From a virus, in the UHGV virus genome UHGV-1443331: a stretch of 9,649 nucleotides of DNA. One strand, written 5' to 3'. The position numbers were made by a program, and so were the translations under genes. Of the stretch, positions 8,114 to 8,829 are shown one piece after another (position 1 is the stretch's first letter; each line of letters begins with the position of its first letter). The notes under the pieces were generated by a model. The model searched no databases and was not told the origin of the DNA. It was given only the letters and a program-made list of their open reading frames with translations.

Positions 8114-8296
8114 ATGGCAAAGCGCACGACTTATAACGTGACGGAAGAAAGAAAAATGAAACTAGAACGACTGGCTATAAATGCCAGTGTAAAACTAGGA
8201 AAAACAATTACATGGACAGAGATTTTAGGTTATCTGATTGATAACTACTCTAAAGATGCAGCAGAAGATCTCATGTCTGCCAAACAAAAGGATTAA
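8114..8296 (+). CDS. Small putative DNA-binding regulator (60 aa), possibly ribbon-helix-helix; candidate phage repressor
   Basis: ATG at 8114 transcribed divergently from gII. Sequence KRTTYNVTEERKMKLERLA fits a beta-strand followed by a helix as in RHH proteins; this is a pattern-level guess. Confidence 0.45.
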   Translation: MAKRTTYNVTEERKMKLERLAINASVKLGKTITWTEILGYLIDNYSKDAAEDLMSAKQKD

Positions 8297-8552
8297 GTAC
8301 CACGAATGGTACAAACGTGCAGTATTACCAACACTGCACGTTCTAGTTTGTGCAAAACTTAAACAAAAAGTAAGTCATCGAGATAAACAAAACGAGTCAA
8401 AGTATATACTGATGAATACGCCAAAAAAAAGTGAACAAAAACAGAATGATAAGCAACAAGGCTTTGCCCAAGATGGTTTGGACACATCTAAAGCAAAAAG
8501 GCTTTTAGAAAAAGCTCAACAATCCACTACTAAACCAACACAAGGAAAGTAA
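8238..8552 (+). CDS. Lys-rich small protein; start uncertain (track ATG 8238 overlaps the upstream ORF; alternative ATG at 8412 gives 46 aa)
   Basis: C-terminal motif GLDTSKAKRLLEKAQQ is echoed by GLNTSKASSLLAKIQS at the C-terminus of the next ORF, which argues this frame is coding at least from about 8412. Its stop TAA (8550..8552) lies 1 nt before the next ATG. Confidence 0.35.
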   Translation: MITTLKMQQKISCLPNKRIKYHEWYKRAVLPTLHVLVCAKLKQKVSHRDKQNESKYILMNTPKKSEQKQNDKQQGFAQDGLDTSKAKRLLEKAQQSTTKPTQGK

Positions 8553-8553
8553 T

Positions 8554-8829
8554 ATGTTATCTTTTCAGGTTTTCCTTTTTAAAAAAGCATTAGAGGAAGA
8601 ATTAGATATAATCAAATGGCATCCAACAAATGAACAATTGGAGGAGATGTTCAATGAGATAAAAAAACTCAGTGGCAATGAAAGCATCACTGAAGTTGAA
8701 AATATCGTTCATCGAATTTACAAAAAACCGATTACAAGAATGATTTGTAATGGATTGAATACATCGAAAGCAAGTTCGCTATTGGCAAAAATTCAATCCC
8801 AGTCAAATAACACTCAACAAAAAAGATAG
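8554..8829 (+). CDS. Hypothetical small protein (91 aa)
   Basis: Good Shine-Dalgarno (AAGGAAAG) 5 nt before the ATG at 8554; tightly coupled to flanking ORFs; shares the C-terminal motif with the upstream ORF. Confidence 0.6.
   Translation: MLSFQVFLFKKALEEELDIIKWHPTNEQLEEMFNEIKKLSGNESITEVENIVHRIYKKPITRMICNGLNTSKASSLLAKIQSQSNNTQQKR

Follow-up and report, generated by a model that had tools for sequence, protein, structure and literature searches.

Two small paralogous proteins of a filamentous prophage share a probable docking helix and belong to a putative membrane-associated conflict cassette

Why do two small genes, placed one after the other near the end of a filamentous phage genome, encode proteins that finish with much the same residues? 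The question arises from a stretch of viral DNA of 9,649 nt (UHGV-1443331, hereafter "the window"), in which an initial annotation drew attention to a C-terminal motif common to two consecutive small open reading frames (ORFs) and to doubt about where the first of them begins. The window corresponds to a CUS-1/YpfPhi-type inovirus prophage of E. coli that is integrated in tandem at dif. Tandem prophages adjoining hipA match the window at 100% in 22 E. coli genomes, where inovirus genes are annotated. The features relevant to the question are as follows.

8114..8296, + strand: 60-aa putative regulator (ORF; PGAP hypothetical WP_001335098.1; phrog_2503, function not assigned)
8297..8342, + strand: two adjacent hairpins in the regulator-A interval, GTACCAcgaaTGGTAC and ACGTGCAGTA...ACTGCACGT, then a U-rich stretch
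8412..8552, + strand: ORF A, a Lys/Gln-rich mini-protein of 46 aa, MNTPKKSEQKQNDKQQGFAQDGLDTSKAKRLLEKAQQSTTKPTQGK (PGAP CDS WP_001335097.1)
8472..8519, + strand: motif of A, DGLDTSKAKRLLEKAQ, a turn or N-cap plus an amphipathic helix
8554..8829, + strand: ORF B, 91 aa, ending ...NGLNTSKASSLLAKIQSQSNNTQQKR (PGAP WP_000948310.1; phrog_6502)
8749..8796, + strand: motif of B, NGLNTSKASSLLAKIQ
8841..9533, + strand: ORF C, 230 aa (PGAP WP_000382466.1; phrog_5814), with an alternative GTG start at 8829 that overlaps the B stop
9551..9610, + strand: 24-nt inverted repeat, GGCCGCTGCG...CGCAGCGGCC, then TTTT

ORFs A, B, and C form an accessory cassette of the prophage, located on its regulator (lysogeny) side and adjoining the dif junction. 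The gene for the 60-aa regulator is the first of the plus-strand lysogeny-side set and is divergent from gene II. Its product is 63% identical to a Dickeya homolog, and the YpfPhi homolog, YPO2273, has been termed RstR-like (PMC4266046). Accessory ORFs adjacent to attL that have no assigned function have been reported for both CUS-1 and YpfPhi (PMC4266046). The two hairpins, which lie in a region (8285-8420) with a computed folding energy of -28.6 kcal/mol (z = -3.4), probably serve as a terminator or attenuator and mark the left boundary of an exchangeable cassette. At the other end, the inverted repeat is probably a terminator that closes the cassette, and it is followed immediately by the dif-like junction of the next copy in the tandem array. 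No Rfam family matched the window, and a distant blastn search with positions 7987-9649 against INPHARED phages returned no match.

Reading frame and start of ORF A

The first small ORF can be read from a TTG codon at 8238 to its stop at 8552. Read in this way it ends in ...DGLDTSKAKRLLEKAQQSTTKPTQGK and overlaps the 60-aa ORF (8114-8296) out of frame by 59 nt (8238-8296), at exactly the coordinates first given. An in-frame ATG at 8412 had been put forward as the possible real start, and both the PGAP product of 46 aa (WP_001335097.1) and the starts of orthologs agree with this choice. Orthologs of A in Dickeya, Proteus, Cedecea, and two further loci (L003 and L006) begin at or near the equivalent ATG. 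The Dickeya protein is 83% identical to A, and its gene carries an in-frame stop three codons 5' of the ATG. The Shine-Dalgarno sequence that precedes the ATG is weak in the window, and reads AAGG in the orthologs of A.

It is very improbable that the first ORF instead encodes a 104-aa protein from 8238, made either from its own TTG or through a programmed frameshift that would fuse the regulator to the motif. The frame is indeed open from 8238, PHROG family phrog_6875 models a 98-aa version of this protein, and the same N-terminal "peptide" can be read in three other sequences (P0009, P0010, and P0011). But conservation of this extension is confined to near-identical DNA, and P0010 and P0011, which share the "translation" of the extension DNA, continue after approximately position 8345 as unrelated membrane proteins. 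The loci L003 and L006, as well as those of Proteus and Cedecea, have no extension. In Dickeya, the stop codon just upstream of the ATG would end any such reading, and a 138-aa gene and about 1 kb keep the regulator and A apart. A programmed frameshift is expected to leave a downstream frame that is conserved across the overlap and an architecture that is kept in relatives, and positions 8238-8411 display neither. Because the extension is not conserved as a protein and spans the 3' end of the regulator along with two strong hairpins, the suggestion that A might be reached by frameshifting from the regulator, or that 8238-8411 is translated at all, is not supported.

Paralogy of the two tails

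With the frames settled, the resemblance between A and B could be evaluated directly. The tails do share a motif, as the first reading of the sequence had proposed, and the two copies are identical at 10 of 16 amino acids. Alignment of the two DNA segments, one of the checks suggested then, revealed a core of 16 codons (8472-8519 versus 8749-8796) in which 34 of 48 nt are identical (71%), and 4 of the 10 residues shared by the motifs are encoded by different codons. A BLASTP comparison of A with B yields 11 identities among 24 positions (E = 2e-4 for this single comparison). Their Smith-Waterman score is 49, a value attained by none of 20,000 composition-preserving shuffles (mean 23.5, maximum 47). 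When the motif of A was compared with the 159 stop-to-stop stretches of the window, the sole match other than itself was B (score of 46; all others 24 or less).

More distant comparisons lead to the same result. A hidden Markov model (HMM) built only from B proteins detects six A-type peptides at 15.8-20.4 bits, all at HMM positions 59-91, and gives no more than 8.5 bits to anything else among 1,869 stretches. Within the six A copies, a 13-residue core, DGLDTSKAKRLLE, is invariant: the codons of this core show 15 synonymous variants, and none of the changes alters a residue. The flanks of A outside the motif core vary freely. The invariance of this core in the face of so many synonymous variants argues that A is translated and is under selection. 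As judged from these codon patterns, purifying selection acts on A at the protein level.

These observations bear on two ways in which the resemblance might be misleading. The two tails have a polar, biased composition, and the pairwise match involves only 10-11 identities. A chance similarity between Lys/Ser/Gln-rich low-complexity tails was thus a reasonable concern from the outset, but it fails as an explanation in light of the shuffling results. The motif is moreover invariant or nearly so in both families across distant taxa, and the B-only model finds every A peptide well above background. Considering the shuffles, the B-only HMM, and the codon variation in A together, we regard chance as refuted, and of all the explanations considered here it is the most improbable. 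Scarcely more credible is the proposal that the repeat acts at the level of DNA or RNA, for example as two protein-binding sites or as a relic of recombination, with A an untranslated remnant of a duplicated B 3' end. The 71% identity of the two DNA segments, the weak Shine-Dalgarno sequence of A in the window, and the nearby regulator and hairpins would all suit such an origin. However, identical residues are often specified by different codons, both within the window and among the six A copies, and in every lineage A retains its ATG and an uninterrupted frame, with a stop codon that touches or overlaps the start of B. The lack of an Rfam match likewise gives no encouragement to an RNA element.

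The nature of the shared module became apparent from relatives of B, a family defined here by small size and by a gene position upstream of C. When 1.84e9 proteins were searched by HMMER with the B family, a check of the kind initially recommended for the motif, 31 matches were obtained at E<=1e-3. Among approximately 30 cluster representatives, the tail (G-h-D-[TN]-S-x4-L-L) is the best-conserved block, and the motif also holds this position among close homologs of B. G67 is nearly invariant and L77 is invariant in 27 B-family representatives, and the more distant members have the tail consensus CPxxGxxxYxG[ILV]DNSD[LI]xxLLxLA. One HMMER match (P0088, 1,232 aa) was set aside as spurious, because this cadherin-like repeat protein has no more than "W-x-P-T-N-E-Q" in common with the family. 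Two mis-annotations were also flagged: the over-extended ORF of 98-104 aa, and the labeling of B as "S-(hydroxymethyl)glutathione dehydrogenase."

B combines a small alpha/beta N-domain (W22-x-P-T...QL) with the C-terminal motif helix. The C-terminal motif, in the form G-h-[DN]-[TN]-[SGA]-x4-L-L, is present in both A and B. The N-domain signature (K10, E14, I19, W22-x-P24-[TS]...Q-L, IV..hY) is found in B, which scores 115 bits against the family HMM. A lacks this signature, as only about 20 polar residues precede its motif, and Lys and Gln account for 9 and 8 of its 46 residues, respectively. Because the N-domain signature is missing, A is best classified as a tail-only derivative rather than as a full member of the B family. 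The idea of paralogous tails offered in the initial annotation therefore stands in a more specific form, in that the motif is the signature of the B family and A carries essentially that module alone. A looks like a B paralog that was cut down to its tail. Tail HMMs of the B subtypes that occupy the first and second positions score A equally poorly (~2-3 bits each) and so favor neither subtype as its source. A mini-protein similar to A arose independently in an Acidobacteriaceae metagenome-assembled genome (L033).

The AF2 model of B (pLDDT 71.6) assigns low confidence to residues 65-69 and folds residues 70-84 into a helix with a pLDDT of ~55-63. This tail helix is not confidently packed on the N-domain of the same protein. 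An alignment as shallow as the one available to the model (7 sequences) may in itself account for the low pLDDT of the tail.

A coupled cassette in defense neighborhoods

A, B, and C are contiguous in the window. The start of B lies 1 nt past the stop of A, and its Shine-Dalgarno sequence (AAGGA) falls within the last codons of A. Stop and start codons that overlap or are 1 nt apart characterize the A-to-B and B-to-C junctions of many other loci. In 22 of 24 genome loci with relatives of C, one to four B-family genes are positioned directly upstream on the same strand; L002, L003, L006, and L011-L014 also have a B-family gene upstream on the strand of C. Read from the other side, B-family genes have C as their constant partner downstream. 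The order A-B-C is found in E. coli, Dickeya, and Proteus, and the order A-B-A-B-C in L003, L006, and Cedecea. B-B-C or B-B-B-C arrangements occur in Aeromonas, Pseudomonas, Paraburkholderia, and Methylobacter, among others.

The product of C is modeled by AF2 (pLDDT 80) with a confident N-terminal helical cytoplasmic domain (approximately residues 1-140) and three C-terminal transmembrane helices. C has 57 homologs, and an alignment of the family reveals the invariant positions W67, E73, C75, H85, Q109, R110, and Y135-G-F, and the predicted N-domain is a confident helical bundle that would carry the invariant polar residues. A natural fusion of B to C (a "Rosetta stone") was sought among the long homologs of C, and none was found.

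Searches for known families provided few clues. Scans of A, B, and C against Pfam, NCBIfam, and PADLOC produced only sub-threshold and inconsistent matches (P2, RecX, ENOD93, and Csx27), and no toxin or antitoxin domain was found in these three collections. In PADLOC-DB v2.0.0, A and B have no match and C matches only Csx27, at an E value of 0.0056 that is not credible. Profile searches of the PDB with B and C gave a best E value of 0.011, to designed proteins, and Foldseek gave no match in BFVD at E<=1e-3. The ABC-3C CTD1 family (PF20276) was also considered; it was rejected because the sole matching member of 27 (P0081) scores 19.8 bits, below the cut-off of 25. No ABC ATPase was seen at the loci examined. 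No description of the cassette was found in the literature under the protein accessions, the PHROG ids, or inovirus defense cassettes.

Genetic context was more informative. Examples of the cassette occur in three different inoviruses, and one in Microbulbifer adjoins an integrase. Most cassettes reside outside phages and have no regulator nearby. As judged from this distribution, the cassette is widespread and mobile, with diverged forms across Proteobacteria. Known defense systems are located within ~3 kb of several cassettes: Gabija (L024-26), Olokun (L021), PifA (L027), Hachiman (L029), Rosmer (L033), and AbiJ (L003). The flanking genes match GajA/GajB, OloA/OloB, PifA, HamA, and RmrT/RmrA, and nSTAND3 genes are also near. 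This tally covers ~17 independent loci, several of them without a match, and is a local count rather than a genome-wide statistic. Four loci (L023, L036, L012, and L014) have no known defense gene among the flanking ORFs tested. Even so, the recurrent siting of the cassette by different known systems in unrelated genomes, which is the usual mark of residence in defense islands, is observed directly, as are the linkage of the genes, the paralogy of the tails, and the selective constraint on A.

Candidate functions and known systems

The explanation that we favor, and consider modestly probable as a whole, is that A and B are translated paralogs with a docking tail that are coupled to C in a mobile membrane conflict cassette. 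In this reading, A and B belong to one family of small cytoplasmic proteins whose hallmark is a C-terminal turn and an N-capped amphipathic helix (G-h-[DN]-[TN]-S-x4-L-L-x-x-[AK]). B keeps its N-domain, and A is reduced to the helix between disordered Lys/Gln-rich flanks. From one to four B-family genes always lie ahead of the gene for one membrane protein, C, and are coupled to it in translation. The shared helix may be a docking element that would give all paralogs a common binding site, most likely within the cytoplasmic domain of C or, alternatively, on each other. The divergent N-domains of B paralogs might then supply different inputs, and A, which has no such domain, could be a regulator that consists only of a docking peptide and acts as a competitor or plug. 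The predicted role of the whole is in phage-host conflict at the membrane, whether superinfection exclusion, abortive infection, or defense. In short, the tail is probably a docking helix of a membrane-associated conflict cassette, and we infer docking to C, a regulatory role for A, and a defense function. A bolder version, which we offer only tentatively, is that the B family and C constitute a new defense or superinfection-exclusion system. In such a system, small sensors or adaptors would dock by one helix on a membrane effector, A would be the docking-peptide-only regulator, and filamentous prophages such as CUS-1 would be partly responsible for its spread.

Two other functional interpretations deserve consideration. 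The less unlikely of these is that the helix is an integral or self-associating part of the B fold, packed in cis or swapped between subunits, and that C is simply co-transcribed. The partner of A would in that case be B itself, on which A would exert a microProtein-like dominant-negative effect or with which it would form a hetero-oligomer, and the role of the cassette could be in host fitness or membrane physiology instead of defense. The motif is present in every B protein directly after the last strand of the N-domain, and in L003, L006, and Cedecea it is the whole A-B pair that has been duplicated. Yet the tail is modeled with markedly lower confidence than the N-domain, and linkage to C is near-universal and translationally coupled. 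A link to host fitness in animals, with a modest effect in vivo, has been described for CUS-1 and YpfPhi (PMC4266046), and for this reason the cassette may possibly contribute to virulence or fitness, a role also compatible with cassettes that lack a known defense gene among the flanks tested. Set against this is the repeated, independent juxtaposition with six different defense systems.

It is also conceivable, albeit improbable, that the motif binds nucleic acid and that A and B are small DNA-binding prophage regulators (antirepressors, or cofactors of replication or integration) rather than partners of C. The helix-hairpin-helix (HhH) consensus is hxxhxGhGxxxAxxhh, and the spacing of G-L-[DN]-T-S-K-A-x-x-L-L resembles this pattern (G-h-[GND]...A..hh). 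The flanking tails are Lys-rich, and the genes adjoin a phage regulator. Nevertheless, no HhH or other DNA-binding Pfam family matches any of the 27 B members even at E<=1, and the residues that precede the motif are modeled as strand or loop, where an HhH would have its first helix. In the distant consensus, DNSDLxxLLALA, the character is acidic and hydrophobic instead of that of a DNA-binding element, and most cassettes are found in regulator-free surroundings beyond phages.

The likeness to HhH elements, and to the exit helix of dockerin/EF-hand loops (h-[DN]-x-[ST]-D-h-x-x-L), is one of short pattern only: a Gly turn, Asp/Asn/Ser/Thr caps, and an amphipathic LL helix. Unlike HhH motifs, the tail has no first helix. 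A dockerin/EF-hand loop, whose 12 residues include acidic or amide Ca ligands at positions 1, 3, 5, and 12, was considered and rejected. The first three of these ligands are not conserved in the tail, Lys occupies position 12 in A and B of the window and in the enterobacterial forms, and there is no Pfam match.

At the level of gene organization, the cassette calls to mind type II toxin-antitoxin and abortive-infection modules, which likewise couple one or more small upstream genes to a larger membrane protein and are mobile, residing in defense islands and prophages. It differs from type II modules in having no known toxin-antitoxin domain, in the large conserved cytoplasmic domain of C, and in having as many as four small genes per effector. 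Another parallel is cI-rexA-rexB of phage lambda. There, too, the genes are co-oriented with a prophage regulator and divergent from replication and morphogenesis genes, and small soluble proteins are encoded beside a polytopic membrane protein. Here, the context of the cassette suggests exclusion or abortive infection. There is no similarity to RexA or RexB in sequence or fold, and the present cassette is distinguished by multiple paralogous small proteins with a common tail.

ORF A itself is reminiscent of microProteins and of Id-type truncated paralogs, in that it keeps only the interaction-type module of its larger neighboring paralog, B, and a similar reduction is seen in L033. The microProtein concept comes from eukaryotic transcription factors, and A offers a clean bacterial case in which a paralog has been stripped down to its interaction-type motif. 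MicroProtein-like genes of this type are often missed by gene callers.

The nearest counterparts by position are "orf1/orf1a" of CUS-1 and YPO2271/YPO2272 of YpfPhi, which belong to the same type of phage and are likewise located past an RstR-like regulator and by the dif junction. These accessory ORFs have been described as having no homologs or known function (PMC4266046). They have been termed orphans since 2002-2007. The phages that carry them have a documented link to fitness in ExPEC K1 and in pandemic Y. pestis. Whereas the literature on CUS-1 and YpfPhi treats them as isolated orphan ORFs, the analysis presented here places such genes in a three-gene cassette that has internal paralogy and occurs in other inoviruses as well. 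The orphans thus become a conserved three-part cassette with a recognizable signature, a wide distribution, and defense-island neighbors. Together, these attributes lead to the testable hypothesis that the cassette of CUS-1-type phages may provide prophage-borne exclusion or defense at the membrane.

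Setting of the genes in a tandem inovirus prophage

The minus strand of the window carries a complete inovirus gene set, and PGAP annotates four hypothetical genes on the plus strand.

Features of the window
72-416 and 457-1128: SDR and LysR pseudogenes
about 1322-1343: dif-like sequence, CATAATATACATTATGCGCACC
1329-1362 and 9616-9649: direct repeat of 34 nt, TACATTATGCGCACCAATGGTAAGGATGGTGGGA, recurring at a distance of 8,287 nt
minus strand: gene II (Phage_CRI + G2P_X_C, E = 6e-69), gene V, a G7P-like gene, the major coat gene, the attachment protein, DUF5455, Zot-like gene I and the secretin; after these, two small genes annotated as hypothetical
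8114-8296, plus strand: putative regulator, 60 aa
8412-8552, plus strand: A, 46 aa
8554-8829, plus strand: B, 91 aa
8841-9533, plus strand: C, 230 aa, with three transmembrane (TM) helices

The prophage is a filamentous, dif-integrating element of the CUS-1/YpfPhi type that lies in tandem at dif beside hipA. Positions 7987-9649 (1,663 nt) share 100% identity with the chromosome in 22 complete E. coli genomes, and in NZ_CP122448 two tandem copies are flanked by a LysR pseudogene and hipA. The second copy of the 34-nt repeat is the beginning of the next prophage, and the window stops just within it. The ORFs adjacent to attL are unlike in YpfPhi and CUS-1, are without homologs, and have no known function (review PMC4266046).

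Within the intergenic region between gene II and the regulator, TGAGTTCA occurs in three exact copies within 80 nt (7988-7995, 8035-8042 and 8059-8066), with one exact copy elsewhere in the window. These copies are candidate operator repeats, and a promoter-like site is present at 8053-8080. In gene III, a 15-nt periodic repeat (5328-5462) encodes the glycine-rich linker, a common feature of g3p attachment proteins. A, B and C share the orientation of the regulator and diverge from the replication and morphogenesis genes. This is where lysogeny-expressed exclusion or conversion genes classically lie, with lambda rex as a comparison.

A conserved C-terminal segment common to A and B

The initial annotation proposed that A and B end in paralogous tails or contain a duplicated module, and its coordinates and peptide endings are all correct. 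The two segments (8472-8519 in A and 8749-8796 in B) agree at 10 of 16 amino acids (DGLDTSKAKRLLEKAQ versus NGLNTSKASSLLAKIQ) and, when the DNA is aligned, at 34 of 48 nt. The tails match by BLASTP with E = 2e-4, and none of 20,000 composition-preserving shuffles reached the Smith-Waterman score of 49 (shuffle maximum 47). Among all stop-to-stop stretches of the window scored against the motif, B scored 46 and the others 24 or less, leaving no other motif-like stretch. Together, these results exclude chance similarity between low-complexity sequences.

Comparison with protein databases identified the motif as the signature of the B family. When the B profile was run exhaustively with HMMER against 1.84 billion representatives, it recovered 31 proteins (E<=1e-3), all 60-117 aa long bar one repeat protein, which we dismissed as spurious. 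Close homologs from Dickeya, Pectobacterium and metagenomic contigs (65-80% identity) retain GLNTSKASxLLAKI, whereas the remainder of the protein is variable. Distant members, which are encoded beside C homologs, have the strikingly uniform tail CPxxGxxxYxG[ILV]DNSD[LI]xxLLxLA[IL]Q. When the proteins recovered by HMMER are aligned, residues K10, E14, I19, W22 and P24 of the N-domain and G67 and L77 of the tail are invariant or nearly so. In NCBI and UniRef, several homologs (P0001, P0005 and P0006) bear the name “S-(hydroxymethyl)glutathione dehydrogenase”, a label without support.

The structural model of B (pLDDT 71.6) comprises a small N-domain, ordered helix-strand-helix-helix-strand, and a tail that is predicted with low confidence at residues 65-69 (NGLNT) and is helical from residue 70 to 84 (pLDDT about 55-63). 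On this basis the motif is modeled as a turn or N-cap followed by an amphipathic helix (A/L at i, i+3, i+4 and i+7). The model gives this helix no confident packing in cis, which is what a segment that folds on a partner would be expected to show. The HhH pattern and the exit helix of dockerin/EF-hand resemble the motif, and both were rejected as its identity because their defining features are missing. ABC-3C CTD1 was likewise set aside as a single sub-threshold match absent from other members.

An HMM built from B proteins alone, and run against 1,869 stop-to-stop stretches of unrelated loci, detected every A-type peptide offered: one each from the window and Dickeya, and two each from contigs L003 and L006. 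All six scored 15.8-20.4 bits and aligned at HMM positions 59-91; the top unrelated stretch reached 8.5 bits. Further A-type genes are present in Proteus (L013, missed by the gene finder) and Cedecea (L017). Thirteen residues, DGLDTSKAKRLLE, are invariant in the six copies, and their codons carry 15 additional synonymous variants and no non-synonymous ones, whereas the flanks diverge freely. This codon pattern indicates purifying selection on the core of A as a peptide rather than as DNA. The stop codon of A abuts or overlaps the start of B (TAAtATG in the window; at other loci ATGA or TAATG), and the last codons of A contain the Shine-Dalgarno sequence for B. A gene in an Acidobacteriaceae MAG (L033, 2585-2833), with a disordered N-terminus followed by ...DGIDNSDLKALLALAIQ, is an independent instance of the same tail-only reduction.

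Three other observations concern these genes. An unrelated low-GC viral contig (L010, 10708-10941, minus strand) encodes a 77-aa protein with CGLDTTKAEKLLVKK. With the B HMM this protein reaches only 8.5 bits, and it may be either a coincidental match (the DNA pattern was expected to give about one) or a very remote relative. A small GC-rich hairpin, CAGAACCCCGAACCGCTTCGCGGT, absent from the window, is conserved 5' of A in Dickeya (L002, about 7797-7820) and upstream of the first A gene in L003 and L006. Finally, the identical 16-mer AAGGAAAGTAATATGT forms the initiation region (Shine-Dalgarno, spacer and ATG) of gene V (6877-6892, minus strand) and of B (8542-8557, plus strand), a pair with a chance expectation of roughly 0.02-0.05 for the window. 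The 16-mer is not conserved in the Dickeya relative, where the start regions of gene V and B differ, and common translational control of gene V and B is possible but unsupported.

The start of A and the upstream module boundary

Two origins had been offered for A: initiation at the ATG at 8412, or frameshifting from the regulator. Starting at 8238, the open frame shares 59 nt with the regulator and next crosses two hairpins (8297-8342, fold z = -3.4). PHROG phrog_6875 and protein cluster P0009 model this long form of A, both from near-identical DNA only; the phrog_6875 profile is an over-extended 98-aa form and an annotation artefact. Clusters P0010 and P0011 possess the same “N-terminus” but continue into unrelated membrane proteins. 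Thus, the conserved part is the 3' end of the regulator plus the hairpins, which also puts a module boundary near 8345 and argues against 8238-8411 as protein-coding. In Dickeya, a stop codon lies three codons 5' of the ATG of A, and a 138-aa gene parts the regulator from A. These findings, and the retention of the extension only in near-identical DNA, favor the ATG at 8412 as the real start. Frameshifting is not supported. Taken together, A and B are very probably translated paralogs with a conserved C-terminal helix in common, and A begins at 8412.

In other elements, different cargo, namely TM proteins of 94 and 180 aa (P0010 and P0011), directly follows the two hairpins where the 3' end of the regulator is the same, which points to a recombination junction for accessory cassettes at about 8345.

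Linkage to C, genomic neighborhoods and possible roles

Of C, 57 homologs are known from the search; those related over the full length (33-41% identity) come from Aeromonas, Microbulbifer and many metagenomes. The C-terminal TM module is also found by itself in fusions with other domains (ankyrin, DUF4019). The AF2 model (pLDDT 80) has a confident helical domain (residues 1-140), in which W67, E73, C75, H85, Q109, R110 and Y135-G-F are invariant, followed by three TM helices. The C profile located 24 genome loci, and in 22 of them B-family ORFs lie directly upstream on the same strand; the other two are a 536-nt contig and a partial match.

Gene orders of the cassette
A-B-C: E. coli, Dickeya (inovirus prophage), Proteus
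A-B-A-B-C: L003, L006 (another inovirus, with a different replication module and an XRE-type regulator), Cedecea
B-C: Microbulbifer
B-B-C: Aeromonas, L014, most Pseudomonas, Paraburkholderia, Methylobacter
B-B-B-C: P. mandelii, P. sediminis

This linkage and the translational coupling make it highly probable that the B-family genes and C form one functional cassette. Pseudomonas inefficax (L036, 3-3588) appears to have a tandem pair of complete cassettes, whose C-like genes occupy 462-1181 and 2863-3588; a 181-aa open stretch there holds two B-type domains, either fused or belonging to two neighboring genes. A contig from a Paenibacillus tengchongensis assembly (L016, NZ_WACP01000076.1, 536 nt, coverage 0.7) is 99% identical to E. 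coli C and is almost certainly contamination. Downstream of C, about 72 nt within 9533-9607 (including an inverted repeat, 9551-9610) on their own match >500 E. coli records, including many plasmids, at 91-93% identity. In one of these, pAGR6137b (L040, 2501-2571), an STM4504-family gene is on one side of the segment and a truncated IS200C-family tnpA on the other. It could be a common terminator, or an Xer- or IS-associated hairpin.

Away from this prophage, the neighborhoods of the cassette are varied and resemble mobile elements (integrase, IS elements, Rhs and HicA-like genes). Known defense systems lie within about 3 kb of it in independent genomes.

Defense genes near the cassette, with best E-values for the first five entries
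L024-26: Gabija (GajA 8e-205, GajB 5e-138)
L021: Olokun (OloA 1e-59, OloB 4.5e-73)
L027: PifA (3.5e-68)
L029: Hachiman (HamA 8e-131)
L033: Rosmer (RmrA 8e-72, RmrT 3e-13)
L003: AbiJ-like gene (Pfam AbiJ_NTD4 and Abi_C on called gene)
L013: nSTAND3 (Pfam nSTAND3 on called gene)

At several other loci, the flanking ORFs tested included no defense neighbor. The proximity is suggestive, as a description of the inspected loci rather than a genome-wide statistic.

From this context, the cassette could plausibly, if tentatively, act in phage-host conflict at the membrane. More speculatively, the helix might dock onto one partner common to the paralogs, with the cytoplasmic domain of C as the most likely candidate, and A might then be a tail-only regulator. 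As the main alternative, B would associate with B or A with B through the helix, and the cassette would benefit host fitness instead of defense. Docking to C, with a role in conflict, is the reading that we put forward.

No description of the cassette or of A/B paralogy was found in the literature, and databases hold its proteins only as hypotheticals or mis-named entries. The family itself, the multi-paralog architecture with a common tail, and the tail-only mini-protein are new. In its overall design, A-B-C fits the class of known accessory cassettes of prophages and defense islands, which combine small soluble proteins with a membrane protein.
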